A DNA stretch of 35,090 bases from Acidobacteriota bacterium (GTDB lineage Bacteria > Acidobacteriota > Vicinamibacteria > Vicinamibacterales > CAVVIG01), in assembly GCA_043759095.1 (NCBI GenBank), contig JAYVMG010000627.1:1-35090 (forward strand), given 5' to 3'. Within the stretch, counting starts at the first letter, position 1. Each line of letters begins with the position of its first letter. A program made the position numbers and the translations under genes. The notes under the pieces are model-generated. The model did not search any database. It was not told the origin of the DNA and saw only the letters and a list, made by a program, of their open reading frames with translations. Shown here piece after piece: positions 13,077-34,814 of the stretch.

Positions 13077-13279
13077 GACCGCCTCATGAAGGCCGCGATG
13101 TATGGCGCCTTTCACCTCGACCCGGCGCAGCGCCGCATCGTCGCCTCCCGGCTCCAGGGCGACACGATTGTCGCCAGCCGGTAGCGGCTGCGCCGCTCCG
13201 CAGACATCTAATTACCTGTCCCGCTGCCTCGTTCCGCGATACGATTTCGCGTTCGCGTTTTTCATTGTACGAGGTGGCT

Positions 13280-21812: not shown

Positions 21813-22970
21813 TCAATGCGCGCCGGCTGCCCCCGCACTGGTCGCCAGTGTCTCGGCGCGCGCGGATGTGAGCAGCGGTTCGATGTTCGGGCCCGGCTCA
21901 TACGCGCACAATGGATCCGAAGCCATCACCGCGCCGGTCGCGGCGAACGCCCTCGACCGGGATCCGCCGCAGATGTCCCGGAACCGGCAGCGGCCGCACT
22001 TGCCCATGAGCGCGTCCGTGTCGCGGAGGCGCGTGAAGACGTCATCGGTGCGGTACACCTCCGCCAGGCTCGTCGTTCGCACGTTGCCGCACTGCACGGG
22101 CAGGAAGCCGCTCGGGCAGATGTTGCCGAGATGGTCGACGAACACGAAGCCGTTACCGTCGTTCACGCTGCGTGGCGCGCGAAGCTGGCGGCGGCTCGCC
22201 ACCGCCTGCGACGGAAGGCCGTCACGCACCCGCTCATGCTCGCGCTGCCACACCACGCGCTGGTAGTGCGGCGCCTCCGTCGTCTTGATGCCGAATGGCG
22301 ACGTGAGCGAGAGGTCATAGAGGCGGTTCAGCAGCTTCTCGCACTCGACGTCGTTGATCTGCTCGAGGCCGGCGCCGCGGCCGGTCTGGATCAGGAAGAA
22401 CAGGGCCCAGAGCGTCAGCGGGAACTCGGCGACGCGAGCGGCCATCGCGTCGAAGTCCGCGAGCGTCCGCCGGCTGATCGTCGAGTTGATCTGCAAGGGC
22501 AGCCCCAGGTCGATGGTGGCCTCGATGATCCGCATCGTCCAGTGGTACGAACCGCGCACCCCACGGAATGCATCATGTGATTCGGGCGTCGGGCCGTCGA
22601 GGCTGACCGCGATGCGCGAGAGCCCGGCCTCCTTCAGCGCGGCGAGCTTGGCCGGCGTGGCCGCGGCCGTACCACTCGGCGTGAGCGCGACGGTCAGGCC
22701 GGCGCCGGCGGCGTATCGCACGAGTTCCACGAGATCGGGCCGCCGCATCGGGTCGCCGCCCGTCAGTACAAAGAGCGGCGGCTTCTCGCCGAATCCACGC
22801 ACCTGATCGATCAGTCGGAACGCCTCTTCCGTGGTGAGCTCGCGCGGATCGCGGCGGTGTATCGCGTCCGCGCGGCAGTGCACGCAGGCGAGCGCGCAGG
22901 CGCGCGTCACTTCCCAGATCACGAGAAATGGCGCGCGGTTGAAGTCCGGGGCGAAAGCGGCAGGCGTCAT
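21813..22970 (-). CDS. Radical SAM/SPASM protein, TIGR04053-like (NirJ/AhbD-related)
   Basis: VIWEVTRACALACVHCRA (CxxxCxxC), LTGGDP, KTTEAPHY, VNDGNGFVFV, CPSGFLP, GKCGRCRFRDICGGSRSRA, DPLC; start ATG 22970. Confidence 0.9.
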   Translation of the reverse strand: MTPAAFAPDFNRAPFLVIWEVTRACALACVHCRADAIHRRDPRELTTEEAFRLIDQVRGFGEKPPLFVLTGGDPMRRPDLVELVRYAAGAGLTVALTPSGTAAATPAKLAALKEAGLSRIAVSLDGPTPESHDAFRGVRGSYHWTMRIIEATIDLGLPLQINSTISRRTLADFDAMAARVAEFPLTLWALFFLIQTGRGAGLEQINDVECEKLLNRLYDLSLTSPFGIKTTEAPHYQRVVWQREHERVRDGLPSQAVASRRQLRAPRSVNDGNGFVFVDHLGNICPSGFLPVQCGNVRTTSLAEVYRTDDVFTRLRDTDALMGKCGRCRFRDICGGSRSRAFAATGAVMASDPLCAYEPGPNIEPLLTSARAETLATSAGAAGAH

Positions 22971-23003
22971 GCCTCCAGCATCGCGCGGGGCCCGGCAACT
23001 GCC

Positions 23004-23019
23004 TATGACCCGCGTCATA
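23004..23019. promoter_or_regulatory. Crp/Fnr-type palindromic site 1 (radical SAM promoter)
   Basis: TATGAC-CCGC-GTCATA; centre 23011.5 is 41.5 nt upstream of ATG 22970; -10-like GATGCT at 22982-22977. Confidence 0.8.
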
Positions 23020-23048
23020 CGCCAGAGAAGACAAGAAAAGACACGGCG

Positions 23049-23064
23049 TATGACGGCCGTCATA
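23049..23064. promoter_or_regulatory. Crp/Fnr-type palindromic site 2 (nos operon promoter)
   Basis: TATGAC-GGCC-GTCATA; centre 23056.5; -10 TACAGT 23086-23091 predicts +1 at 23098, i.e. -41.5. Confidence 0.82.
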
Positions 23065-23130: not shown

Positions 23131-24297
23131 ATGACACGCCACACGATTCGACGCGGACTCGCAATCCTCTCGCTGCTGACCGCCGGCGTCTTCCTGGCCG
23201 GCTGTTCGTCCAGTCGGCCCGCCGCCGATGCGGCGTCGCTCACGCCACCATTTCTCGACACGCCCGTTGCGCCGCGACCGGCGATGACGTCGGCGACGGT
23301 CGAGAAGGGCAAGCAGCTGTACGACGCCAACTGTGTCCAGTGCCATGGGCCGGAAGGCAAGGGCGATGGCTACGGCGCGCCGTTTCTCGTCCCGCCGCCG
23401 CGCGATTTCACCGGCGGCCAGTTCAAGTTCAGGACGACGGCGGGAGGCCTGCTGCCGACCGACGACGACCTGTTCCGCACGATTTCGCGCGGCGCGAACG
23501 GCACGGGCATGCCGCCGTGGAAGTACCTGCTCAACGATGAGGAGCGCTGGGCGCTTGTCGAATACGTGAAGAGTTTCGAGCCTCGCTTTGCCAATGCGCG
23601 AACCCTCAAGGCCATGCCGCTGCCGGATGCCCCCGGCAGGTCGCGGGACGCCGTCCACGGCAAAGCCGTGTATCTGAAAATGCAGTGCGAGAAGTGCCAC
23701 GGCGAAGATGGCCGCGGCGTCGGGCCCTCGTCGAATGCGATGGTCGACGCCAAGGGTCGGCACGTGAACGGTCGCGACTTCACCCAGCCCGGGTCGTACC
23801 GCACCGGCTGGACCGAACGCGAGATCATCCGCACGCTCGAAACAGGGATGAACGGCGTACCGATGCCGTCGTACACGGGCATCATGTCGAAGCAGGAAGA
23901 GTACGACCTTGTGGCCTACCTGATGAGTATCGCGGGTCCGGGCTCCGGCAATCAGAAGCGTCAGCTCGCCAAGAGCATGGAAGGCGTCGGCGCACCTGAT
24001 CGGGTCATCACGCTGCGCGAGCACGCGTGGAAATACGAGCCGGCGGAGATTCACGTGAAGCGCGGAGAAGTGGTGAAGATCGAATTTTCGACGACCGACA
24101 ACGGTCTGGGTGCTGGGCACGGCTTCGCACTCGACGGGCTCGATCAGAGCGTGTTCATCAACGGCGCCATGGTCGGCGCGCCGCTCTCGGTCACGTTCAA
24201 GGTCGACACCCCCGGGCGCTACAACTTCTACTGCGCGACGCAATGCAGCACGACCGAACTGCACCCCAAGATGCACGGCGTGCTGATCGTCGACTAA
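23131..24297 (+). CDS. Lipoprotein: two c-type cytochrome domains plus C-terminal CuA-like cupredoxin domain
   Basis: Lipobox LAGC; CVQCH...GMP, CEKCH...PMP; GHGF...YCATQCSTTELHPKMHG; GGAGG RBS before ATG 23131 (in-frame alternative ATG 23098). Confidence 0.9.
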   Translation: MTRHTIRRGLAILSLLTAGVFLAGCSSSRPAADAASLTPPFLDTPVAPRPAMTSATVEKGKQLYDANCVQCHGPEGKGDGYGAPFLVPPPRDFTGGQFKFRTTAGGLLPTDDDLFRTISRGANGTGMPPWKYLLNDEERWALVEYVKSFEPRFANARTLKAMPLPDAPGRSRDAVHGKAVYLKMQCEKCHGEDGRGVGPSSNAMVDAKGRHVNGRDFTQPGSYRTGWTEREIIRTLETGMNGVPMPSYTGIMSKQEEYDLVAYLMSIAGPGSGNQKRQLAKSMEGVGAPDRVITLREHAWKYEPAEIHVKRGEVVKIEFSTTDNGLGAGHGFALDGLDQSVFINGAMVGAPLSVTFKVDTPGRYNFYCATQCSTTELHPKMHGVLIVD

Positions 24298-24318: not shown

Positions 24319-26148
24319 ATGAAACGCCATTCGTTCCTTCTCGTCGCCGCGACCATCGTCGCCACGCTTGCTGCCGTGCACTCCATGGGCTGCGGCGCCT
24401 CGCGCTCGGCCCGATCGCTGGCCGCTGAAAAGGTGTATGTCGCACCCGGTGAGCTCGACAAGTACTACGCCTTCCTCTCGGGCGGCCAAAGCGGATCGGT
24501 GTTCGTGGTCGGGATTCCGTCGGGTCGTCTGATCCGTGAAATCCCGGTGTTCGAACCCCGGGCAGCGTATGGCTACGCGATGAACGACAACGATCCCCGC
24601 CGGCAGGAACTCGTCGCGACCGGCGGCGTATGGGGCGACACCCACCATCCCGTCCTGTCGGAAACCAACGGCATGCCCGATGGGAAGTACCTCTGGATCA
24701 ACGATCTCGCCAACGGTCGGTTGGCGCGCATCCGGCTCGACTATTTCGAAGCCGACCGCATCCTCAAGCTGCCGAATATGCAGGGGGCGCACGGCATCGC
24801 CGTGGTCTCGCCGAACACGAAGTACATCGTCGTCAACGGTGAGTTCGAGCTGCCGACCGACGGTCTCGTGACGAATCCGGCGCCCTACACGTCGGTCGTC
24901 TCGTTCGTCGATCCCGACAGCATGCAGGTGAAGTTCCAGGTCCGCATCAACGGCAACATCGATATTGCCGACACGTCGAAGGATGGCCGCTACTCGTTCT
25001 CGACGGTCTACAACCTCGAGCAAGGCAAGGACATGGGATCGATGATTCAGTACGACCGTGATGCGGTCGCGGCCATCGACATTCCGGCGGCCGAGAAGGC
25101 CATCGCGGCCGGACGCGGCGAGGTGCGCAACGGCGCGCCGATTCTCGACCCTGAGACAAATCCCGGTGTGCTGACGCTGATTCCGGTTCCCAAGAATCCT
25201 CACGGGATCAACGTGACGCCTGATGGCCGCTATGCCATCGCCGCCGGGAAGTTGTCGCCGACGGTCACGATCATCGACGCGCACACGCTGAAGATCATCG
25301 CCGAACCCGAGGTCGGCCTGGGGCCGCTGCACACCACGTTCGACGATCGCGGCAACGCGTTCACATCGCTGTTTCTCGACAGCCAGGTCGTGAAGTGGAA
25401 CATCGACAAGGCGGTGAAAGGCGCACCCGACTACATCGTGGACCGCATCAACGTGCACTACAACATCGGTCATCTGCAGGCGGTCGGCGGCGACCACATG
25501 CATCCGGCGGGCGACTACCTCATCGCGCTCAACAAGCTGTCGAAGGACATGTATGCGCCGGTTGGTCCCGATCTACCGGAAAACCAGGAGATCATCGACA
25601 TCTCCGGCGAGAAGATGAAGCTGCTCGCGTCGTTCCCGACGCCGCCCGAGCCGCACGACGCGACGTTCATGGCCGTGTCAGTGCTGAAGCCGCTCGTCCA
25701 CCAGACGTACACGCCGGCCGACAATGCGGTTCAAGCCGGCAAGGAGCGGGTCGTGCGCACCGCGCCGCACGCCGTGACGGTGGACATGACGCTGATTCGC
25801 AGCGCCTATACGCCGGACAAGGTCGAGGTGCGGGAAGGCGATCAGGTGACGCTGAAGATCACCAACGTGGAGACGATTCGCGACATGATTCACGGCTTTG
25901 CGCTGCCGGACCACAACTTGAACATTGCGCTCGCGCCCGGGTATACCAAGACCATCACGTTCGATGCCGGCAAGCCGGGCGTCTATTGGTACTACTGCAC
26001 GAATTTCTGCAGCGCGCTCCACCTCGAGATGCGCGGGCGGATGCTCGTGCAACCGAAAGATTCGACCGTCACGCTGACCGACTGGCACGCGGCGGCGAAC
26101 GTCCAAGGGCAGGTCGTTGCCGGCGTGCCATCGACCGGGGCCAAGTAA
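24319..26148 (+). CDS. nosZ: Nitrous oxide reductase
   Basis: All seven CuZ His contexts (DTHH, GAHG, PKNPHG, GLGPLH, NIGH, EPHD) and CuA ligands (HGF, CTNFCSALHLEM). Confidence 0.97.
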   Translation: MKRHSFLLVAATIVATLAAVHSMGCGASRSARSLAAEKVYVAPGELDKYYAFLSGGQSGSVFVVGIPSGRLIREIPVFEPRAAYGYAMNDNDPRRQELVATGGVWGDTHHPVLSETNGMPDGKYLWINDLANGRLARIRLDYFEADRILKLPNMQGAHGIAVVSPNTKYIVVNGEFELPTDGLVTNPAPYTSVVSFVDPDSMQVKFQVRINGNIDIADTSKDGRYSFSTVYNLEQGKDMGSMIQYDRDAVAAIDIPAAEKAIAAGRGEVRNGAPILDPETNPGVLTLIPVPKNPHGINVTPDGRYAIAAGKLSPTVTIIDAHTLKIIAEPEVGLGPLHTTFDDRGNAFTSLFLDSQVVKWNIDKAVKGAPDYIVDRINVHYNIGHLQAVGGDHMHPAGDYLIALNKLSKDMYAPVGPDLPENQEIIDISGEKMKLLASFPTPPEPHDATFMAVSVLKPLVHQTYTPADNAVQAGKERVVRTAPHAVTVDMTLIRSAYTPDKVEVREGDQVTLKITNVETIRDMIHGFALPDHNLNIALAPGYTKTITFDAGKPGVYWYYCTNFCSALHLEMRGRMLVQPKDSTVTLTDWHAAANVQGQVVAGVPSTGAK

Positions 26149-26723
26149 TGAAGGTGCGGCTCCTCTACGCCGCCGCCGCCGCGCTCGTCGCGGCGACGCT
26201 AGCGTTCCCGCTGTGGGGCTTCGCCATGGCTGCGCCGCAATACCCTGACGAGACCCTGCACCTGCAGGTGACGCGGGCCGGGATTGTCGGCGACGTGCAG
26301 GAGGTGTCGACCCTGCAGCATTTCATCGGCGTGCGGTTCCCGACTGAGTTGCCGGAGTTGAGGTGGGCGACGGCCGCGATCGTCGCGCTTGCAGCCCTCC
26401 TGCTGCTCGGCGCGCTTGTCGGCGGTGGCGCGGTCGGCCGCGTGTATCGCGTGCTGTGCGCCGTTGCGCTGGTGACATTTCTCGTGGCATCAGCCGCCGT
26501 GGTGCAGACGCGGTTGTACCAGGTCGGCCACGATCGCGATCCGGACGCGCCACTGCGCGGCATGCGCAATTTTACCCCGCCGCTTGTCGGCCCGGCGAAG
26601 GTCGGCAATTTTACTGTGTGGTCATTTCCGCATACCGGCGCCCTCATGCTGCTGTTGGCGGCAGGCCTCGCCGTCTATGGAGTCCGCCTTCAGCCGGACT
26701 CTTCGGGAAAGGCGGCCGCGTGA
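26148..26723 (+). CDS. nosB: NosB-like membrane protein
   Basis: PLW...APQYP, GDV.....LQHFIG, GH.RDP.AP, PPLVG.....NFT..S.P match the clade II NosB pattern; ATG overlaps nosZ TAA. Confidence 0.85.
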   Translation: MKVRLLYAAAAALVAATLAFPLWGFAMAAPQYPDETLHLQVTRAGIVGDVQEVSTLQHFIGVRFPTELPELRWATAAIVALAALLLLGALVGGGAVGRVYRVLCAVALVTFLVASAAVVQTRLYQVGHDRDPDAPLRGMRNFTPPLVGPAKVGNFTVWSFPHTGALMLLLAAGLAVYGVRLQPDSSGKAAA

Positions 26724-28123
26724 GGCGTCGAACCGCGCTCATCGCCGTCGTCCTCGCTCTTGCCGCTGCGCGCGCGGACGCGCGGACCTGGCTCGTCGGC
26801 GGCGCTGGCGCGGACTTTCCGCTGATCGCGCCAGCGATAGCGGCTGCGTCAGCGGGAGACGTCGTCCGCGTGCGTGGCGGCGTCTATCGTGAAGACCTGG
26901 TTCTCGACAAGTCCATCACCCTCACAGGCGAAGGGCATCCGACGCTGTTTGGCACTGGCCTCGGGTCGGTCATCACCATCACGGCGCCGGGATGTGAAGT
27001 GAGGGGGTTCACGATCGAAGGCAGCGGCATCGGCGAGACCAACGAGATGGACGCCGCCGTGCAGGTCCGGTCCAACGGCAATCGCATCGTGGACAACACG
27101 ATGCGTCGAGTGTTTTACGGCGTCGTGCTCGCCGATGCCATGCGGAACGAGATCGCCGACAACGACATTCAGGGCTTGCGTGACCTTGCCTTCGGTCGGC
27201 GCGGCGACGGCATTTATCTGTACCGCGCGCCGGAGAACTTCGTCGCGCGCAACCGCATCTTCGGCGAGCGCGACGGCATCTATTTCCAATATGCCCCGCG
27301 TGGCCGGGCGGTCGACAACGTGGTTTCGGATTCACGTTACGGGCTGCACGACATGTTTTCCGACGACGCGGTGATCGCCAGGAATACGTTCAGCGACTCT
27401 GTCGTCGGAGCCAACATCATGAACTCGCGGAGGGTGCGCCTCGAAGGAAACACGATCTCCCGCAATCGCGGCGTGCCGGGCATCGGTCTGACGCTGAAGG
27501 ATTGCGACGACTCGACGATTCGGCACAACGTGATCGTCGGCAACGCGCGGGGGCTCCTCCTCGACGGATCGTCCGTGAACCGGTTCAGCGACAACACGTT
27601 CCGCGCCAACGACACCGCGGTCACGCTCTTCTCCAGCGCCGAACAGAACGTGTTCAGCGGCAACCGGTTTGTCGACAACTGGAGCGATCTCGTGCTGAGC
27701 GGCCGCGACTCCGGCACACGCTGGACTGCAGACGGGCGCGGCAACTACTGGAGCCGGTATCGCGGCTTCGACTTCGATGGCGATGGGATCGGCGACACGC
27801 CGCATCCGCTCGTCGGCGCGTTCGAGCGTCTCGAAGGAGCAAATCCGGCAGCACGCATCTTTCTGCAAAGCCCCGCGGCGGCCGGTCTGGAACTCGCCGC
27901 ACGACTGAGTGGACGCACGGCGGACGACGCGACTGACGATCGCCCGATGGTGCGCCAGCCGCAACCCGCCCTTCCGGCGTCGTCGCGGCCGACCGCGGGA
28001 ATCGCCGGCGTCGCAGCGCTGCTCATCGTCGGGTGCGCGCTGCGCGTTTCGAGGCGTCAGCGGAGGAAGATCGCCGTCAGCGGCCATCCTGATTCCAGAG
28101 GAATCGATCCATGCTCACACTGA
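26720..28123 (+). CDS. nosD: Periplasmic NosD maturation protein
   Basis: Parallel beta-helix repeats, RGDGIYL, RDGIY, RYGLHDM, GNYWSRYRGFDFDGDGIGD; GTG 26720 overlaps nosB TGA. Confidence 0.93.
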   Translation: MRRRTALIAVVLALAAARADARTWLVGGAGADFPLIAPAIAAASAGDVVRVRGGVYREDLVLDKSITLTGEGHPTLFGTGLGSVITITAPGCEVRGFTIEGSGIGETNEMDAAVQVRSNGNRIVDNTMRRVFYGVVLADAMRNEIADNDIQGLRDLAFGRRGDGIYLYRAPENFVARNRIFGERDGIYFQYAPRGRAVDNVVSDSRYGLHDMFSDDAVIARNTFSDSVVGANIMNSRRVRLEGNTISRNRGVPGIGLTLKDCDDSTIRHNVIVGNARGLLLDGSSVNRFSDNTFRANDTAVTLFSSAEQNVFSGNRFVDNWSDLVLSGRDSGTRWTADGRGNYWSRYRGFDFDGDGIGDTPHPLVGAFERLEGANPAARIFLQSPAAAGLELAARLSGRTADDATDDRPMVRQPQPALPASSRPTAGIAGVAALLIVGCALRVSRRQRRKIAVSGHPDSRGIDPCSH

Positions 28124-28911
28124 CCGGCGTCACGAAGGCCTTCGGCAATCGCCGCGTGCTCGATCACCTCGACCTCGAGATCGGCGCGGGCGAGAGCATC
28201 GCCATGCTCGGCGCGAACGGGTCCGGCAAGACAACGGCGCTGCGCTGCAGCGTCGGGCTGGCGAGGCCGGACGAGGGCCGCATCACCGTTGGCGGCGTCG
28301 ACATGGCGCGCGATCCCATTGGCGCGCGAGGCCGCCTCAGTTACCTGCCGCAGAAGTCGGTCTTTCCGGCGACGCTGACCGTGCGCGAGACGCTGGCGGT
28401 AGTGGCGCGGCTGCGCGGGATTCCGGCCGTCGCCGTCGATCGCGAGCTCGACGCGTGCGGCCTCGTTGCGCTGGCGGACCGCGGCGTCGGCCACCTGTCC
28501 GGCGGAGAGCGGCAACGCCTCGCGATGGCCGTGGCGTTTCTGCCGACGGTCGACGTGTACCTGTTCGACGAACCGTCGGCCAATCTCGATCCCGTGGCGT
28601 CGCGCATGTTATTCCAGCGCGCCAGGCAGCTGAAGCGCGACGGCCACACGCTGCTGTTCACGACGCACATTCCGGCCGACGTGCGTCATCTGGCGACGCG
28701 GATCGTGTTGCTTCGCGACGGACGGATTGAATCCGAAGCGGCCGGACAGTTCGAGCTCCGCCGCTACGAGCGGATGCTGGAGCGCGACATGTGGGGGGAC
28801 GAACATGAAGACGTGGCGCTTGATCCTCGCGTTGCTGCTGGCGTCGGTGTCGGCGGCAGCCTGTGCGAAACGGAGTATGTCGGCCGAGCCGTTGCCGCTC
28901 GATCGCGTTGA
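28111..28911 (+). CDS. nosF: ABC transporter ATPase NosF
   Basis: GANGSGKT, LSGGE, LFDEP, TTH; position after nosD. Confidence 0.9.
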   Translation: MLTLTGVTKAFGNRRVLDHLDLEIGAGESIAMLGANGSGKTTALRCSVGLARPDEGRITVGGVDMARDPIGARGRLSYLPQKSVFPATLTVRETLAVVARLRGIPAVAVDRELDACGLVALADRGVGHLSGGERQRLAMAVAFLPTVDVYLFDEPSANLDPVASRMLFQRARQLKRDGHTLLFTTHIPADVRHLATRIVLLRDGRIESEAAGQFELRRYERMLERDMWGDEHEDVALDPRVAAGVGVGGSLCETEYVGRAVAARSR

Positions 28912-29242
28912 ATGCGCACGGTGCCGGATGCTGATATCAACGGACCGCGGAGGCGGGGAGATCGTGTCGGCGACAGACGACACGCGCTTCTACGACGACA
29001 TCGGCTGTCTCGCGGCCGATTGGGCGGCACATCACGGTGACGCTCGAGCGTTCGTGCGAACCGCGGGCGGGGGATGGACCGACGCGCAGGTCGCGTCGTT
29101 TGCGCAGCCGACCGACGCCAGGACGGCGATGGGCTCCGGTATCGCGGCGTTCGCCGCGGCGGCCGATGCACGCGCCGCCGATCCCACGGGCCGAGTGCTG
29201 ACCTTCGACGATGTCGTGCACCTCTCGGGAGGGCAGCGATGA
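28805..29242 (+). CDS. nosL: NosL copper chaperone lipoprotein
   Basis: MKTWRLILALLLASVSAAAC lipoprotein signal, CARCRM, YDDIGC, TAMGSG. Confidence 0.88.
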   Translation: MKTWRLILALLLASVSAAACAKRSMSAEPLPLDRVECARCRMLISTDRGGGEIVSATDDTRFYDDIGCLAADWAAHHGDARAFVRTAGGGWTDAQVASFAQPTDARTAMGSGIAAFAAAADARAADPTGRVLTFDDVVHLSGGQR

Positions 29243-30066
29243 TGACTCATCTTCTGACGATCGCTCAACTGGAGCTGACAGCGGCCGTCCGGTTGAAGTG
29301 GATCCAGCTGCTGACCGCTGCCTTCGCGTTGCTGGCGGCCGCTGCGGCGTACTCTGCCGGCGTCGCCAATGAGGTCACGGGCGCGGAGGGCTTTGCGCGC
29401 ACTACGATGGCGCTTATTCCGGTCGTGCTCATTCTGGCGCCGCTGTCGGCGCTGATTCTGGGAGTGTCGGGTCAGGCCTCGGAACCGGGCAGCGAGCCGT
29501 TCCTGTTCGGTCAGCCAGTTGGTCGCTCGACTGTTCTGGTTGGTCGTTGGCTCGGCGAATCCGTCGCGCTCGGCGCCTCCATCGTCACCGGCCTGGGGAT
29601 CGGGGGCGTCATCATCGCGTCTGGCAGCGGCGCCGATGGCCTGCTGCGATTCATCTTCTTTGTGCTCTCGTCGGTTGTACTTGCCACGATCTTCCTGTCG
29701 ATCGCCGCCGCGATCGCGTCGGCCACCGACACGCGCGTCGTGGCGCTCGGGGTCGCCACGTTCGCATGGTTCTTCTTTGTGTTGCTCTATGACGGCGCCG
29801 CGCTCTCTCTCGCGGGATGGCTCACGGGATCGCTCGGCGGCCGGATCCTCTTCGGGTCAGTCTTTGGAAATCCGACGGACTTGATTCGTGTGGTTGCACT
29901 ATCGGTGGCGGGCGCCCCCAATGTTCTCGGGGCTGCCGGCGACGCGTGGGTACGCTTCTTAGGCGGGGCGACGGGCGCAGCCGTCGCGGCGATGGTCGCG
30001 CTCACGGTGTGGATGATTGCGCCGCTCCTCCTCGGCGTACGGCTGATCAGCACGCGCGATCTGTAG
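29239..30066 (+). CDS. nosY: ABC transporter permease NosY
   Basis: Multiple TM segments, QPVGR..VLVGRWLG, WFFFVLLYD, NPTDLIR; ATGA overlap with nosL. Confidence 0.88.
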   Translation: MMTHLLTIAQLELTAAVRLKWIQLLTAAFALLAAAAAYSAGVANEVTGAEGFARTTMALIPVVLILAPLSALILGVSGQASEPGSEPFLFGQPVGRSTVLVGRWLGESVALGASIVTGLGIGGVIIASGSGADGLLRFIFFVLSSVVLATIFLSIAAAIASATDTRVVALGVATFAWFFFVLLYDGAALSLAGWLTGSLGGRILFGSVFGNPTDLIRVVALSVAGAPNVLGAAGDAWVRFLGGATGAAVAAMVALTVWMIAPLLLGVRLISTRDL

Positions 30067-30074
30067 GGCGGCCC

Positions 30075-30764
30075 TCAGGACACGGCGACCGTCTCCAGAG
30101 CAGCGCGATCGACGATCACAAACCCATCCTTGTCGGTTCGGACCACGCCATCTTTGCCCCACCGGCTCATGATGCGTATCGACGTCTCAATCGTTGTGCC
30201 GATCATGTCGGCGAGTTCCTGTCGCGACAGCACGAGGGGAATGAAGACGCCCTCATCACGGCGTTGCCCGATGTCTGTGCCCAGCTTCAGAAAGAAGCGT
30301 GCGAGTCGCCCTTCAATGCGGCCGCCCGACAATTCGGTCAGGCGGTTGGTCAGTTCCACCAGACGATGCGTCAGCCCCACCAAGAGACCGCGAACCATGG
30401 TGGGATAGCCCTCGAGCAGCGAGAAGAATGCCTGGCGCGGGATGAGCAGGCAGGAGGTCGGTTCCAGCGCGAGCGCACTGGCTGGATAAGGACGGGCTTC
30501 GTATACGGCCACGGCGCCCACCGGATCTCCCGGACCGAAGAGTTCGAGGATCACATCCGTGCCGCGCGGTGTCGTCTTGAACACTTTCACTCGGCCGGTC
30601 AGGACCGTGTACATCAGGTCTGATCCGTCGCCCTCACTGAACAACGTGGCGCCTTTCTCGAAGGCGCGCACCGTCGCGACGGCCGCCAGGCGTTGCCGGT
30701 CGTCGGGCTTGAGACGGCGGAACAGGACACTCCGGCGCAGGGCGTCGTCGACTAGTTCGGACAT
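30075..30764 (-). CDS. Crp/Fnr family regulator (DNR/NnrR/HcpR-like, no Fe-S Cys cluster)
   Basis: cNMP-type barrel (LFSEGD, GRVKV, YPASA), RLARF, HTH LSRQELADMIGTTIETSIRIMS; only one Cys. Confidence 0.93.
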   Translation of the reverse strand: MSELVDDALRRSVLFRRLKPDDRQRLAAVATVRAFEKGATLFSEGDGSDLMYTVLTGRVKVFKTTPRGTDVILELFGPGDPVGAVAVYEARPYPASALALEPTSCLLIPRQAFFSLLEGYPTMVRGLLVGLTHRLVELTNRLTELSGGRIEGRLARFFLKLGTDIGQRRDEGVFIPLVLSRQELADMIGTTIETSIRIMSRWGKDGVVRTDKDGFVIVDRAALETVAVS

Positions 30765-30826: not shown

Positions 30827-31561
30827 ATGAATGAACCATTGACAACGAGAACGGTCGGCGAAGTCGTGTCCGCCGACTTCCGCACCGTCGCGGTGTTCGA
30901 ACAATTTGGCATCGACTTCTGCGGTAGCGGTCGCCGTTCGCTTGAAGATGCCTGTCGTGCGGCCGCGGCCAATCCGGACACCGTGGTCCGCGCCCTTGAT
31001 GCGCTGCCGCCAGCGATCGAAACCAACGACGACGTGACGCGATGGCCGGTTCCGCAGCTGATCGACTTCATTGTGTCGACACATCACGCGTACGTGCGAT
31101 CGGCGATGCCAACGATCGCGAGGCGCCTCGCAAAACTGAACGAGGTGTATAGCTCGCGGCATCCGGAACTCTCGCGTGTGGCCGCGTACTTCGACCAGGT
31201 GCGCCGCGATCTCGAGCAGCACATGCTGAAGGAGGAGCAGGTGCTCTTTCCGTACGTGCGCGATCTCGCCGAATGCGGCGAGAGCTGCGGCTGGACGCGG
31301 AGCCCGTTCGGTACAGTGGAAAATCCGATCCGGATGATGGAGCGAGAGCATCAGGAAGTCGGCGATGCGATGCGTCTGATTGGCGAATTGACCCTTGGCT
31401 ACGCGCCGCCCGAGGACGGCTGCACGACGTATTTGATCGGCATGGCCGAACTCCAGCGTTTCGAGCGCGACCTGCGCCGGCACGTGCATCTGGAGAACAA
31501 TGTGCTGTTTCCCGCTGCCGTGCGGATTGAACAGCGGCTGTGCGGAATCGCCGGAGCCTGA
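30827..31561 (+). CDS. ric: Iron-sulfur cluster repair di-iron protein Ric (YtfE/ScdA/DnrN)
   Basis: ScdA-N-like GIDFC.., hemerythrin ligands THHAY, HMLKEE, REH, HVHLENNVLFP; GGAG RBS. Confidence 0.93.
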   Translation: MNEPLTTRTVGEVVSADFRTVAVFEQFGIDFCGSGRRSLEDACRAAAANPDTVVRALDALPPAIETNDDVTRWPVPQLIDFIVSTHHAYVRSAMPTIARRLAKLNEVYSSRHPELSRVAAYFDQVRRDLEQHMLKEEQVLFPYVRDLAECGESCGWTRSPFGTVENPIRMMEREHQEVGDAMRLIGELTLGYAPPEDGCTTYLIGMAELQRFERDLRRHVHLENNVLFPAAVRIEQRLCGIAGA

Positions 31562-31838
31562 TTGCGACAGACACGCCCGAAGAATTCTCCGGCTATTCGA
31601 AGACACTCAAGGGTTTGCCGACCCGACAGGATCGCTCGAACGCGTCGCCCAGAGGCGCCGCATAGCCTACTCGGCGTGCATGGGCAAGCCTCTCGGGCAT
31701 CATCGGATCCATCGAATTGGACGCATTCCCGATTCAATAATTGATGACAATTGCGACAATCTTCCTGTTTTTCGTAGCCCCATAATGTGACGAAATCGCG
31801 TTCTTGTGGAGCTTGGTGTCCGTCAGGGAGGTATCGGC

Positions 31839-34814
31839 ATGTCTCGTACAGTTCGGGTCACCTTGCTCGCCAGCATGATGCTCCTGGTCAGTGCTGTAGG
31901 TTTCGCGCAAACAGGCGCAATTGCTGGTTCAGTCAAAGACACAACCGGGGCGTTGCTACCCGGAGTCACCGTGGAGGCCGCCAGTCCGTCATTGATTGAA
32001 AAAGTGCGGTCAGTCGTCACCGATGCGCAAGGCGCATACAAGATTATCGACCTGAACCCGGGAACATATACGGTCACATTTGCGCTCGCCGGTTTCACCT
32101 CCATCAAGCGGCAAGGGGTCGACCTGACGTCCGGCACGACCGTCAACGTTTCGATAGAAATGCGCGTCGGCAACATTGAGGAAACCGTGCTCGTGCAAGC
32201 CAGCACGCCATTGGTCGACATTCAAAGCGCCAACCAGTATCGGGCGCTCACACGGGACCAATTGAACGACTTGCCAACCGGTCGTCAGTGGTTCGACTAT
32301 GTCGTACTGATACCCGGAGTCAGTCAAAGCACCCGCGGTCAGGACGTCGGAGGTAATACCGGCGACCAGAGTCAGGCTCTCGCGATTCACGGGAGCATAG
32401 GCAACGAAATGCCACATTTGGTTGACGGGATGCGCTCCGGCAACATCTTCGGCACTGGCGGTGGCACCAACGGCCCTTATCCGGTCAACAACGCCATCAC
32501 TCAGGAAATCGCTGTCGATACGTCTGGGCCCTCTGCCGAATCCGAAGTCAGCGGCATCCGATCCAATATCATTTTCAAGCAGGGCGGAAACAGGTATTCA
32601 GGTTTCTTCTTCGCCAACGGGATGACTCAGGCGTTCCAAGCCAGCAATTTGGATGCGACGTTGATTGCGCGAGGCGCCACCACGCCGACGATTGAAAAGA
32701 AAATGTGGGACCTGAATCCAGGCTTTGGCGGGCCGGTGATTAAAGACAAGATGTGGTTTTACGCCGCCGCCCGATATTATGGCGCCGTCGAGCAGCCGCC
32801 TGGCGCATATTACGCCGTCGATCCGTATGCTGTGCGTTTCACGCCAGATCTGGCCCGAGGCGCTGCGGAAAATCCCCAGCATACCGTGAGCCAGAATGTT
32901 CACGTGACATGGCAAGTGTCGCCGAAAAACAAGATTGTTGCCTACGCAGACGCAAATCAACGATGCATCCCCTGTGCAAACGGGCTTTCTTCAGCCGTTT
33001 CCTTCGAGTCCACCACACAGTTGAAGACGCCAGTGAATCGAATGGTTCAGTTGTCGTGGGTGACGACGATATCGGATCGTCTACTGCTCGAGCTGGGCGA
33101 AACCTACAAACCGGATTCATGGGGATTTTCTGAACAACCCGGCGTCAATGACAAGCTGTCGCCCATTGTCGATTCCGTTCTTGGTATCCAGTATCGAGGT
33201 CCTACGACCGCACAGACACAGCAGACAAGCTTTCAACAGAACGGCATGGCGAAAGTGTCCTACGTCACGGGATCGAGTAGCCTGAAAGTTGGCGCGCAGT
33301 GGTTCAGCGGCACGAGGCGTCGAGATTTCGAGACCCCCAACGATAGCTATTACGGCTTCACGAATGGAGTACCAACCTCGGTGACCGTGCTTGCAACTCC
33401 TTATTCGGCGTGGGAGAACCTGCGACTCAACTTTGCGGCGTATGCGCAGGAGCAATGGACCAAGAAACGGATGACATTGAATCTCGGACTGCGGTACGAC
33501 CACATCAATCTATACATTCCGGCTCAAACGTTGGCGGCCGTCCAGAACGTAGGTCCGCGTTCATTTCCAGAAATCGACGATATTCCAAATTTCAACGACA
33601 TCTCCCCAAGGATAGGCGTGGCGTACGACCTCTTCGGTTCAGGCAAGACTGCTCTCAAAGGAAGCTTGAGTCGATACGTTGAAGGTCTGGCGTCTGGCTT
33701 TCCGGAGGCGGTGAATCCGATTACGCAAAATGCGTCGGCGACGCGTTCGTGGGGTGACACAAACGGCAACTTCATCCCAGACTGCAATTTGAGCAACGCT
33801 GCGGCAAATGGCGAATGCGGACCGGATAGTAACCAGAATTTCGGCAAACCGGTTTTTCCATTCTCTTACGACCCCCGCGTGTCCACGGGGTGGGGCAACA
33901 GAGGTTATAACTGGGAAGCGTCGGTAGGGATTCAACACGAACTTCGCCCTGGGATGTCTGTTGATGTGTCGTATTTCAGGCGATGGTACGGCAACTTTCG
34001 AGTGACTCACAACACCGCAGTGGCAGTGAGCGACTATAGTTCGTACTGCGTCACGGCGCCAACGGACTCGCGGTTACCGACCTCCGGCCAGTCGATCTGC
34101 GGATTCTATGATCTCAACCCGACTGTTCCGTTTGGCACCAACACGAACGTGGTGACGACCGCGAACAATTATGGCGGCATCACGCAACATTTCGACGGGC
34201 TCGACGTCACCGCGAACCTGCGGTTGCCCGGCAAGATTCAGGTGCAAGGCGGCACAAGCACCGGTCGCACGAGTTTGAACTTCTGCAACGTCGTGCGACC
34301 AGATGTGACGCCCTTCGGCGGCACGTATAGTGAGTGGAGCAATCCGTACCCAGCCGGAACGCTCGTTCCAGCCGGTTCGGCATTCTGCGATGTGCATCCG
34401 CCGATGCAGACGCAAGTGAAGCTGATCGGCATGTACAGTTTGCCGTGGTGGGGCGTGCGAACGAGCGTCTCCTTCCAAAGTCTCGGCGGTCCTCAAATTC
34501 TGTCGATCTACGCAGCGCCGGCGGCGACGGTCACCGGACTGGGGCGTTCGCTGGCCGGAGGGGTGAGGACCGTCTCGATTCCTCTCGTCGCGGCCGGAAC
34601 GGTGTACGGAGATCGGCTCAATCAGGTTGATTTTCGGGTGGCAAAGAACATCAACGTGGGGCAAGTGCTGGTTCAGCCGCAACTGGACTTGTACAACATG
34701 CTCAATGCCAATGCCGTATACGGCGTCACCGCTGCGTATGGTCCCGCTTGGACGAGACCGACCCTCATAATGCTCGGCCGGATGCTGAAGTTCGGGGTGC
34801 AACTCACGTTCTGA
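31839..34814 (+). CDS. TonB-dependent outer membrane transporter, Oar-like, with N-terminal carboxypeptidase-regulatory-like domain
   Basis: Signal peptide, G-VKD-TGA-LPGVTVEAASPSLIEK, LNLGLRYD, SPRIGVAYDLFG, C-terminal Phe; GGAGGT RBS before ATG 31839. Confidence 0.9.
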   Translation: MSRTVRVTLLASMMLLVSAVGFAQTGAIAGSVKDTTGALLPGVTVEAASPSLIEKVRSVVTDAQGAYKIIDLNPGTYTVTFALAGFTSIKRQGVDLTSGTTVNVSIEMRVGNIEETVLVQASTPLVDIQSANQYRALTRDQLNDLPTGRQWFDYVVLIPGVSQSTRGQDVGGNTGDQSQALAIHGSIGNEMPHLVDGMRSGNIFGTGGGTNGPYPVNNAITQEIAVDTSGPSAESEVSGIRSNIIFKQGGNRYSGFFFANGMTQAFQASNLDATLIARGATTPTIEKKMWDLNPGFGGPVIKDKMWFYAAARYYGAVEQPPGAYYAVDPYAVRFTPDLARGAAENPQHTVSQNVHVTWQVSPKNKIVAYADANQRCIPCANGLSSAVSFESTTQLKTPVNRMVQLSWVTTISDRLLLELGETYKPDSWGFSEQPGVNDKLSPIVDSVLGIQYRGPTTAQTQQTSFQQNGMAKVSYVTGSSSLKVGAQWFSGTRRRDFETPNDSYYGFTNGVPTSVTVLATPYSAWENLRLNFAAYAQEQWTKKRMTLNLGLRYDHINLYIPAQTLAAVQNVGPRSFPEIDDIPNFNDISPRIGVAYDLFGSGKTALKGSLSRYVEGLASGFPEAVNPITQNASATRSWGDTNGNFIPDCNLSNAAANGECGPDSNQNFGKPVFPFSYDPRVSTGWGNRGYNWEASVGIQHELRPGMSVDVSYFRRWYGNFRVTHNTAVAVSDYSSYCVTAPTDSRLPTSGQSICGFYDLNPTVPFGTNTNVVTTANNYGGITQHFDGLDVTANLRLPGKIQVQGGTSTGRTSLNFCNVVRPDVTPFGGTYSEWSNPYPAGTLVPAGSAFCDVHPPMQTQVKLIGMYSLPWWGVRTSVSFQSLGGPQILSIYAAPAATVTGLGRSLAGGVRTVSIPLVAAGTVYGDRLNQVDFRVAKNINVGQVLVQPQLDLYNMLNANAVYGVTAAYGPAWTRPTLIMLGRMLKFGVQLTF

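Follow-up and report, generated by a model that had tools for sequence, protein, structure and literature searches.

The 35,090-nt stretch of Acidobacteriota DNA analysed here (contig JAYVMG010000627.1; hereafter the window) carries, within a nos operon, a nosZ gene for a nitrous-oxide (N2O) reductase, NosZ. NosZ is the sole known biological N2O sink, and field studies divide it into clade I and clade II by primers, hidden Markov models (HMMs), and signal type. The comparative analyses suggest, with a probability of about 0.7, that the gene product is an intact Acidobacteriota NosZ from a large environmental lineage, positioned on the NosZ backbone between clade II and clade I, and that it is exported by Sec and served by NosB. 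This lineage straddles the clade line, in that its export signal and accessory genes are of clade II type whereas the clade I model gives the higher score for its catalytic domains. The gene is delimited as follows:

24319-26148, + strand: nosZ, 609-aa nitrous-oxide reductase; a predicted Sec/lipoprotein-type signal is followed by the CuZ-bearing seven-bladed propeller and the CuA cupredoxin domain

The frame is open over 609 codons, from an ATG with GGAG 7 nt upstream to a TAA stop. Every motif string listed in the initial annotation of this DNA is present in the 609-aa translation: RIRLD, FQVRINGNID, PKNPHGINVTPDG, AEPEVGLGPLHTTFD, DSQVVKWN, PVGPDLPENQEIIDISG, EPHD, WYYC, and GRMLV, together with KVYVAPGELDKYYAFLSGG, GGDHMHPAGDYL, FPTPPEPH, and FCSALH. 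The Pfam families nos_propeller (109.1 bits, cut-off 30) and nos_propeller_2 (52.1 bits, cut-off 29) match the query, as do Cupredoxin_1 (35.2 bits) and COX2 (27.0 bits), both above their cut-offs, in the CuA part; the NCBIfam E values are 3e-175 for Tat-NosZ (the twin-arginine, or Tat, type) and 2e-160 for Sec-NosZ. These motifs and family matches are far above chance. Copper ligand positions were judged from alignments. In a 34-sequence alignment with Tat and Sec references, all seven CuZ histidine columns are filled (H109, H110, H158, H295, H338, H385, and H446), and the CuA ligands H525, C560, C564, H568, and M571 (C-x3-C-x3-H-x2-M) are in place as in the references. The same columns agree with the alignment to solved NosZ, all chains of which align with residues 3-581 at 446-486 bits. 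The earlier statement that all copper ligands are intact therefore holds for the seven CuZ histidines and the CuA set. The product is predicted to be a nitrous-oxide reductase of a working type, in an Acidobacteriota genome, and its nearest named records are Vicinamibacterales and Acidobacteria metagenome-assembled genomes (MAGs).

A word-indexed protein search gave 7569 matches with E ≤ 0.001, spanning NosZ as a whole. The best 120 of these share 74-90% identity with the query and are nearly all 609-612 aa long. Many are named nitrous-oxide reductase by JGI; the four with NCBI names, from Acidobacteria, Acidobacteriia, or Vicinamibacterales MAGs, are called "cupredoxin domain-containing protein" (three) or "hypothetical protein" (one). 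In species-representative genomes, confirmed relatives numbered 302, and the 80 best of these comprise 16 loci at 75-97% identity, one at 59%, and 63 clade I Pseudomonadota at 39-43%. Thirteen of the 16 carry Acidobacteriota labels (6 Acidobacteria/Acidobacteriota, 5 Vicinamibacterales, 1 Terriglobia, and 1 Thermoanaerobaculia), and the remaining three are labelled Betaproteobacteria, Cyanobacteriota, and Bifidobacteriaceae. The lineage of the query is thus abundant in public data and already sampled. Its close relatives are termed the family below, and the relatives of the cluster representative P0122 are termed the sister lineage.

The N-terminus of the query, MKRHSFLLV... (MKRHSFLLVAATIVATLAAVHSMGC), is without a twin arginine. 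It reads as a short basic n-region, a hydrophobic core, and Cys24 in a lipobox-like context, and the signal is predicted to be of the Sec/lipoprotein type. Similarly, an RR-x-hydrophobic-hydrophobic pattern within the first 45 residues occurs in 1 of 115 full-length family proteins and in 1 of 115 from the sister lineage, and a lipobox-like xx[GAS]C pattern is present in 107 and 113 of them, respectively. The short non-RR signal that had been described for the query is thus a property of its family as well. Because nosB is present and nosR was not found (see below), the export and service of the system are read as clade II-like.

Phylogenetic analyses used representatives of 50%-identity clusters, of which there were 156 at E ≤ 1e-30; the best 150 were listed, and 34 long ones were labelled with NCBIfam models. 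P0124, P0131, P0138, P0139, and P0149 pass the Tat model; P0127, P0135, P0140, P0141, and P0148 pass the Sec model; and P0204 passes the L-NosZ (lactonase-type) model. The nearest representatives to the query, P0122 (61% identity), P0126 (51%), and P0130 (44%), pass none of them. Named clade I loci from the species-representative genomes and NosZ of same-order genomes were added. In a quick 55-row tree, built without the oddly constructed P0169, P0156, and P0139, the family, P0122, and P0126 adjoin the Tat clade. For a 34-row tree (698 columns, LG+C20+F+G4 by posterior mean site frequency, rooted on L-NosZ), 21 rows were dropped: five near-duplicate family rows, eight clade I rows, L010, and the seven long-branch representatives P0150, P0163, P0173, P0177, P0179, P0187, and P0227. 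This tree supports the Sec clade at 95/86, the Tat clade at 100/98, the family with P0122 at 96/90, and the union of this family group with the Tat clade at 92/89. The same topology was obtained in a 40-row tree with six added Acidobacteriota NosZ (677 columns, LG+C20+F+G4, lactonase-type outgroup P0204 and P0158). Here the family (100/100) groups with P0122 and L112 (93/81), and these fall with the Tat clade on one side (96/95). The family is excluded both from the Tat clade (100/99) and from the classical Sec clade, which comprises 14 rows (96/86).

What can be said safely is that the family branches from the NosZ backbone, between the two canonical clades and inside neither of them. The rooting leans towards clade I, but approximately unbiased (AU) tests allow the other side. 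These maximum-likelihood (ML) trees agree with the initial annotation, which had proposed a deep or intermediate lineage. Nesting within a described clade II subclade, the placement opposed to that proposal, is contrary to the exclusion of the family from the Sec clade at 96/86, although the AU tests allow the union. Separate trees for the two domains were informative in part: the propeller alone gives the same split as the whole protein (support 96 by the Shimodaira-Hasegawa-like approximate likelihood ratio test), and the CuA domain alone (33 rows, without P0148, 105 columns) collapses into a polytomy that does not conflict with it. An ESM Atlas look-up returned NosZ clusters of several kinds at 0.92-0.98 and had no resolving power between them. 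In the same set of representatives, P0130, P0165, P0182, and P0174 are full-length NosZ-like proteins in which several CuZ histidine columns are replaced; the last three keep the CuA motif and form a clade within classical clade II. These four are possibly non-catalytic or differently metallated paralogues.

Several points weigh against the interpretation given at the outset. The union of the family group with classical clade II was not rejected by AU tests on either data set (34 rows, difference in log-likelihood 4.56, p = 0.234; 40 rows, 3.52, p = 0.335). The "clade I side" hinges on the attachment of the distant L-NosZ outgroup, the CuA domain by itself gives no resolving signal, and, apart from the named Pseudomonadota, the references are unnamed cluster representatives labelled by HMM score alone. 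The lipobox of the query, S-M-G-C, is non-canonical, and Sec/lipoprotein export is a prediction from sequence alone. We know of no N2O-reduction assay for any member of the query's family. The evidence for transcription is weak: in a soil RNA library (X20), a single 345-nt contig matches nosZ, with 22 differences, which is a hint of transcription of a relative and may be DNA carry-over, and just 6 contigs of this library lie on the 6.9-kb stretch at ≥85% likeness, the uncovered parts being uninformative. Finally, Luteitalea pratensis, which has genes for an SCO protein and azurin upstream of nosZ as in Opitutus terrae, reduces N2O (PMC13122619), and this published activity may belong to another NosZ lineage.

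The most durable alternative, although an unlikely one, is that the query is an ordinary member of a described clade II subclade, for instance the soil-abundant "Opitutus terrae" sub-clade, and that its clade I-like motifs are a habit of that subclade. The sister lineage is of Verrucomicrobiota type and carries EPHD in 120 and PKNPHG in 119 of 120 proteins, the signal type and nosB are clade II traits, and monophyly with classical clade II is permitted by the AU test. Additionally, a preprint by Karthikeyan et al. (10.1101/2020.06.15.153866) reports that, of the atypical nosZ sub-clades, the "Opitutus terrae" one is the most abundant in soils. However, no Opitutus name occurs among the best 120 relatives of P0122, of which just 8 carry NCBI organism names. 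Neither of the SCO and azurin genes that lie upstream of nosZ in both L. pratensis and O. terrae (PMC13122619) is among the window's scanned open reading frames (ORFs), and a locus in which an azurin-family gene does immediately precede nosZ (L106) encodes a classical clade II NosZ. Moreover, the family stands outside the clade that contains all Sec-HMM-passing representatives (96/86). A position on the backbone between the clades is the preferred reading.

Curated models do not recognise this lineage. The query scores 584.2 bits with TIGR04244 (Tat) and 535.1 bits with TIGR04246 (Sec), both below the cut-off of 625, and 232.7 bits with NF052460, the lactonase-type L-NosZ model (cut-off 700). 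All 46 sampled relatives, namely 29 of the family's listed 120 and 17 of the sister lineage's listed 120, also lie below both NCBIfam cut-offs (Tat 568-616 bits, Sec 518-551 bits, Tat always higher); the 29 from the family span 568-614 and 518-551 bits, respectively. The anticipated failure of clade-specific HMMs was thus observed for the query and for every relative scored. Falling below both cut-offs accounts for the NCBI name "cupredoxin domain-containing protein" and for a wrong "TAT-dependent" name in the sister lineage. The latter, in full "TAT-dependent nitrous-oxide reductase", is attached to four relatives of P0122 from Verrucomicrobiota MAGs (P0320, P0356, P0363, and P0393); the first three of these begin with ordinary lipoprotein signals (...AGCNSD), and their scores of 591-605 bits fall short of the 625 required by the model release used.

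A similar failure had been foreseen for clade-specific primers. The oligonucleotide that we take to be nosZ1F has a site at 25366-25386 with 1 mismatch, and those presumed to be nosZ1R, nosZ2F, and nosZ2R find no site with 3 or fewer mismatches. The presumed nosZ-II-F has a perfect site at 25318-25334, and the presumed nosZ-II-R matches at 25997-26015 with 3 mismatches. The fit is poor overall, in that the reverse primers fail or mismatch. Surveys that rely on NCBI models or primers can therefore miss or misassign the lineage, which KEGG-type annotation or trees already catch.

The sub-threshold scores bear on a second alternative, namely that the query is no N2O reductase at all but a NosZ-like paralogue that acts on a different substrate or serves a different role. 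Besides falling below both equivalog cut-offs, the family has a function read only from its sequence, and ligand-poor NosZ-like proteins do exist (P0130, P0165, P0182, and P0174, which are without several CuZ histidines). This alternative is nevertheless very improbable: none of the seven CuZ histidines or the CuA ligands is missing, nosD, nosF, nosY, and nosL-like genes are in the same operon, and a Crp/Fnr regulator and a nitrosative-stress gene adjoin it. Additionally, the query shares 42-43% identity, over nearly its full length, with clade I NosZ of named Pseudomonadota and aligns to solved NosZ at 486 bits.

The motifs of the family are a mosaic. Across the 34 aligned sequences, RxRLD, an insert-free FQVxxxGNxD, PKNPHGxN, AEPEVGLGPLHTTFD, DSQVVKWN, EPHD, GVYWYYC, and EMRGRM are common to the family and the Tat clade; WGDTHHP/WGDxHHP without a third histidine, a YAFLSGG-like N-terminal strand, NIGHLxxxxGD, and FCSALH are common to the family and the Sec clade. 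The clade-specific motif forms given in the initial annotation are sound, because a preprint (10.1101/2024.01.15.574570) likewise gives DxHHxH and EPHD as clade I forms and DxHH and EPH as clade II forms. The mix is real, but the clade labels of single motifs are not exclusive: EPHD is also present in the Sec-HMM-passing P0140, and the Tat-type P0124 also has FCSALH and no third histidine after DxHH. Among 121 family proteins, EPHD is found in 119, PKNPHG in 120, RxRLD in 119, and FCSALH in 120, and EPHY and FCHALH in none. FCSALH is likewise present in all 120 sister-lineage proteins, with EPHD and PKNPHG at the counts given above, and IDLR is present in 84 of them (versus 0 of 121 in the family). 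The mosaic is a fixed trait of the lineage and therefore fits descent from a deep branch, not a recent domain swap.

In the query, the clade II-like motifs lie at residues 38, 105, 382, and 562, and the clade I-like motifs at residues 136, 206, 291, 328, 354, 445, 554, and 570; because the two kinds interleave along the protein, a chimera, which the initial annotation had offered as an option, is not supported. A recombinant assembled from one clade I-type and one clade II-type part would explain both motif kinds in one protein and the close Tat and Sec scores (584.2 versus 535.1), but it is the least credible of the alternatives, as the motif kinds alternate over the full length, the propeller tree equals the whole-protein tree with a polytomy and not a conflict for CuA, the family shows this mix as a fixed trait (119-121 of 121 relatives) and the sister lineage shows part of it, and gene order is conserved across family loci.

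The window itself is an ordinary, intact nos operon. The predicted genes around nosZ are as follows:

21813-23063, - strand: radical SAM/SPASM protein (TIGR04053, 459.8 bits, cut-off 395), related to haem b synthase AhbD
23131-24297, + strand: dihaem cytochrome c and cupredoxin lipoprotein with two CxxCH, a C-terminal CuA-like cupredoxin, and lipobox LAGC
26148-26723, + strand: nosB-like membrane protein, 191 aa, with 4 hydrophobic transmembrane-like segments
26720-28123, + strand: nosD, periplasmic beta-helix maturation protein (TIGR04247, 366.4 bits, cut-off 300; Pfam NosD, 147 bits)
28111-28911, + strand: nosF, ABC ATPase (Pfam ABC_tran, 92.5 bits), its position kept in family loci
28805-29242, + strand: nosL-like small lipoprotein, weak match (PF05573, 23.7 bits, 28.3 with neighbours, cut-off 24, E 1.6e-4)
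29239-30066, + strand: nosY, ABC-2 permease (Pfam ABC2_membrane_2, 64.3 bits)
30075-30764, - strand: Crp/Fnr-family regulator (cNMP_binding, 79.5 bits; HTH_Crp_2, 63.6 bits)
30827-31561, + strand: iron-sulfur cluster repair di-iron protein of RIC/YtfE type (TIGR03652, 213.4 bits, cut-off 204.7; ScdA_N and Hemerythrin)

The maturation genes nosD, nosF, and nosY thus stand alongside nosZ, with a weak match for nosL. The genes of the order cytochrome-nosZ-nosB-nosD-nosF-nosL-nosY are tightly coupled, and their start and stop codons overlap. In 12 of 12 family loci, as far as their contigs reach, and in L041, the order is cytochrome-nosZ-nosB-nosD-nosF-(gap)-nosY; the short contig of L034 ends before nosY, and L112 matches up to nosF, the end of the fetched stretch.

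The ATG of the nosB-like gene overlaps the nosZ stop codon (TAATG). Its ORF matched no Pfam or NCBIfam family, neither collection having a curated NosB model. A homologue lies directly 3' of nosZ in all family loci (53-95% identity by tblastn) and also behind classical clade II nosZ in L105, L106, L107, and L111 (28-33% identity, E 5e-9 to 3e-12). The 191-aa ORF is read as nosB because its homologues hold the same place in relatives and behind classical clade II nosZ. No nosR- or nosX-like genes were seen among the window ORFs scanned with Pfam and NCBIfam, the scan of these ORFs being the extent of the NosX search. Across the genome of the window (4.5 Mb, 667 contigs, 92.7% complete), the best match to the NosR model NF046105 reached 121.6 bits against a cut-off of 1000 and lies on another contig. 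The nosB neighbour without nosR or nosX, noted at the start, is therefore upheld by the ORF, its homologues, and the window scans. In the same 92.7% complete genome, no NirK match reached its cut-off and the NirS (cd1) family gave marginal matches only.

Further downstream, the nosD start is placed at a probable GTG at 26720, overlapping the nosB stop. The first 119 codons of ORF 26363-28123 and the whole of ORF 29817-30623 (+) were rejected as genes, each being an arginine-rich reading over other genes or intergenic DNA. The nosL-like translation has a convincing signal peptide and a lipobox, AAAC. About 107 nt of this ORF (28805-28911) fall, in a different frame, within the annotated 3' end of nosF; either the overlap is a genuine gene overlap or nosF stops before its ORF end. 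The nosY match begins at residue 61 of a longer ORF (29074-30066), and a start at 29239 was read.

Upstream, the lipoprotein is matched by the Pfam families Cytochrom_C (93.6 bits over 2 stretches) and Cupredoxin_1 (33.1 bits), and its residues 55-269 match the solved chain 6h5l_B (E 7e-45). Its copper pattern, H...C-x3-C-x5-H-x2-M, is one loop longer than a CuA site. The gene immediately precedes nosZ in each of the 12 family loci examined, as well as in L041 and L112; the L036 contig carries just its C-terminal part, and the L041 match covers residues 24-215 only. When the window's protein was aligned with those of 12 loci (L036 and L041 not being among them), all 13 sequences retained the haem and copper motifs. 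The classical clade II loci examined are without such a fusion, and no description of a cytochrome c/CuA-like fusion as an electron-entry module was found for other nos clusters in the literature searched. The lipoprotein is a likely candidate electron donor to NosZ, and may be a dedicated one with a binuclear copper site.

The flanking genes recur to varying degrees. The radical SAM/SPASM gene, which is divergent from the cytochrome gene, lies upstream in 7 of 13 loci (L025, L026, L028, L030, L032, L038, and L041); it is a recurrent neighbour of the nos cluster, with a predicted identity to which no role is assigned. The 3' end of the Crp/Fnr gene faces that of nosY in convergent orientation, and the gene is divergent from the RIC gene, which is a predicted nitrosative-stress gene. 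A Crp/Fnr gene stands beside the cluster in 8 of 13 loci (L025, L026, L030, L032, L035, L037, L038, and L041), and Crp/Fnr and RIC/YtfE genes recur near the nos operon, at times upstream of the cytochrome gene (L037, L038, and L041). Two further window ORFs are typical Acidobacteriota cargo with no connection to the nosZ finding: a 1002-aa protein with CarboxypepD_reg and an outer-membrane beta-barrel (TonB-dependent-receptor-like) at 31806-34814 (+), and a 953-aa M14 carboxypeptidase-domain protein at 13265-16126 (+).

This NosZ is patchily distributed within Acidobacteriota. In the window's genus it occurs in 3 of 13 genomes. When 401 Acidobacteriota genomes were drawn evenly, 42 of them gave a NosZ match at E ≤ 1e-50. 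Among these 42, only the window's genome has a match at ≥75% identity, two are at 59-60%, and three are clade I-like at 44-46%; G013, G014, G016, G313, and G023, which were placed in the trees, are classical clade II, and the rest show the same kind of split or partial matches. In the window's order, L108 (G366), L109 (G175), and L110 (G414) have a different NosZ, nested in the Tat clade; that of L109 passes the Tat model at 806.8 bits. Three NosZ types therefore coexist in one order. In L108 and L109, nosZ is followed by one long ORF joining NosR and NosD (in L109 1101 aa, NF046105 431.2 bits, and TIGR04247 377.2 bits), and L110 has the same nosZ-nosD spacing of about 2 kb. Read from the first ATG, the NosZ of L108-L110 have lipoprotein-like signals without RR, and an RR lies just upstream in frame in L109 and L110.

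The three MAGs labelled Betaproteobacteria, Cyanobacteriota, and Bifidobacteriaceae (L033, L035, and L037) carry the whole cytochrome-nosZ-nosB-nosDFY cluster, with NosZ at 75-80% identity; mis-binning or mislabelling seems likelier than transfer. In L041 (8001-10113), from a Vicinamibacterales long-read MAG, NosZ is at 59% identity by tblastn and does not lie in a single open frame, the longest ORF being 386 aa, owing either to frameshift errors or to a broken gene. Contigs from a freshwater-sediment study independent of the probable source of this DNA contain near-identical sequence; in run X5, for example, a piece of 1046 nt shows 6 differences and one of 427 nt shows 4. Runs X8-X18 share small proportions of words only, and no habitat conclusion is drawn from them; run X19 is guessed to be RNA.

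Taken together, these observations are consistent with the following scheme. NosZ would be exported unfolded by Sec and probably lipid-anchored at Cys24. By analogy with the known families, copper would be supplied in the periplasm with NosD, NosF, NosY, and the NosL-like protein, and maturation would depend on a NosB-type membrane protein, not on NosR or NosX. Electrons, presumably donated by the upstream dihaem cytochrome c/CuA-like cupredoxin lipoprotein, would enter at CuA, and, by homology, N2O would be reduced at the CuZ cluster. The lineage would consist of the Acidobacteriota-type family and the Verrucomicrobiota-type sister, branching between Sec clade II and Tat clade I. Its mixed motifs probably reflect this backbone position and not recombination, some being common to clade I and others retained with clade II and the haloarchaeal-looking P0124. 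Under an operational definition by signal type and accessory genes, the lineage would count as clade II.

A broader reading is tentative and falls somewhat short of an even chance: the family and its sister would be the closest Sec-exported, NosB-dependent kin of Tat clade I, would have their own electron-entry module, and would be part of a soil sink that present tallies under-count. If so, "clade II" would be paraphyletic, and an ancestor of lipoprotein type that used NosB, similar to the query's lineage, would have given rise to the Tat/NosR system. The lineage is a useful anchor for questions on the origin of that system. Because the NCBIfam models miss the lineage and common primers fit it poorly, annotation and PCR tallies could under-count a sizeable soil N2O sink, and tools built on the lineage's own sequences would correct this.

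Published surveys reduce the novelty claimed in the initial annotation, which was overstated. Besides the 120 listed relatives at 74-90% identity, Acidobacteriota NosZ have been surveyed as nosZII: of the 10,909 Acidobacteriota genomes in the survey of Mise et al. 2026, 491 carry nosZ, 98% of these being classed nosZII, with Vicinamibacteria nosZII most prevalent in soils (PMC13122619). Acidobacteriota NosZ are likewise counted as clade II in two other papers (PMC11409646 and PMC9188126). A group outside both clades has also been in print since 2014, as Graf et al. 2014 (PMC4250227) place eight halophilic archaea outside clades I and II. The literature search, with the supplements of PMC13122619 (Figs S2-S3 and Table S1) outside its reach, found no paper that singles out the family as intermediate. 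What is under-described is the exact place of this abundant, already sampled lineage between the clades.

In comparison to classical Sec clade II (NosZ of the same-order genomes L008-L010 and L111, and P0127, which scores 838.8 bits with TIGR04246), the query likewise has no twin-arginine signal and no nosR, and a nosB homologue (28-33% identity) lies directly downstream. Similarly, nosD and nosF follow in the fetched clade II flanks, nosY being reached in L107 only, and WGDxHHP without the third histidine, NIGHLxxxxGD, and FCSALH are shared. However, identity is only about 40-41%, the query lies outside the clade (96/86), and its TIGR04246 score is below the cut-off. It has EPHD in place of EPHY/F, PKNPHGxN in place of KSPHGxD, RxRLD in place of IDLR/K, GVYWYYC in place of GVFPFYC, and EMRGRM in place of EMQGY, and it is without a one-residue insert in the FQV...D loop. 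The upstream partner also differs, being a dihaem cytochrome c/CuA-like fusion in the query and a Rieske-cytochrome b-cytochrome c set or azurin in clade II.

Tat clade I was represented by the solved structures 5i5m, 3sbp, 1qni, 2iwf, and 1fwx and by Pseudomonas, Bradyrhizobium, and Ensifer loci. The solved structures are the best-scoring solved relatives of the query, identity to Pseudomonadota is 39-43%, many propeller and CuA motifs are identical or nearly so, and the ML tree places both on the same side (96/95). In contrast, the query is without an RR signal and without the third histidine of DxHHxH, has FCSALH in place of FCHALH, and is shorter, without several clade I insertions in the alignment to solved NosZ. 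Additionally, no NosR was found in the genome searched, and the query lies outside the Tat clade (100/99) and scores 584.2 bits with TIGR04244, below 625.

Of the remaining systems, lactonase-type (clade III) L-NosZ aligns with the query in the CuA domain and part of the propeller, but forms a long branch apart from all other NosZ. P0124, which looks haloarchaeal from its acidic N-terminus and its Tat signal with lipobox, shares 50% identity with the query, which ranks among the higher values for representatives from outside the family (P0122 61%, P0126 51%), as well as WGDxHHP without the third histidine, FCSALH, EPHD, and a position near the base of the clade I side in the 40-row tree; it differs in its twin-arginine signal, its TIGR04244 score of 723 bits, and its place as sister to the Pseudomonadota Tat clade. 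The Verrucomicrobiota-type sister (P0122, 61% identity; NCBI-named relatives are Limisphaerales and Verrucomicrobiae MAGs) differs from the family in IDLR versus RxRLD, in having no NIGHL and no DSQVVKWN, and in phylum labels, but it shares the lipoprotein-type Sec signal (113 of 115), EPHD, PKNPHG, FCSALH, and scores below both cut-offs (17 of 17), and it groups with the family at 93/81 when L112 is included.

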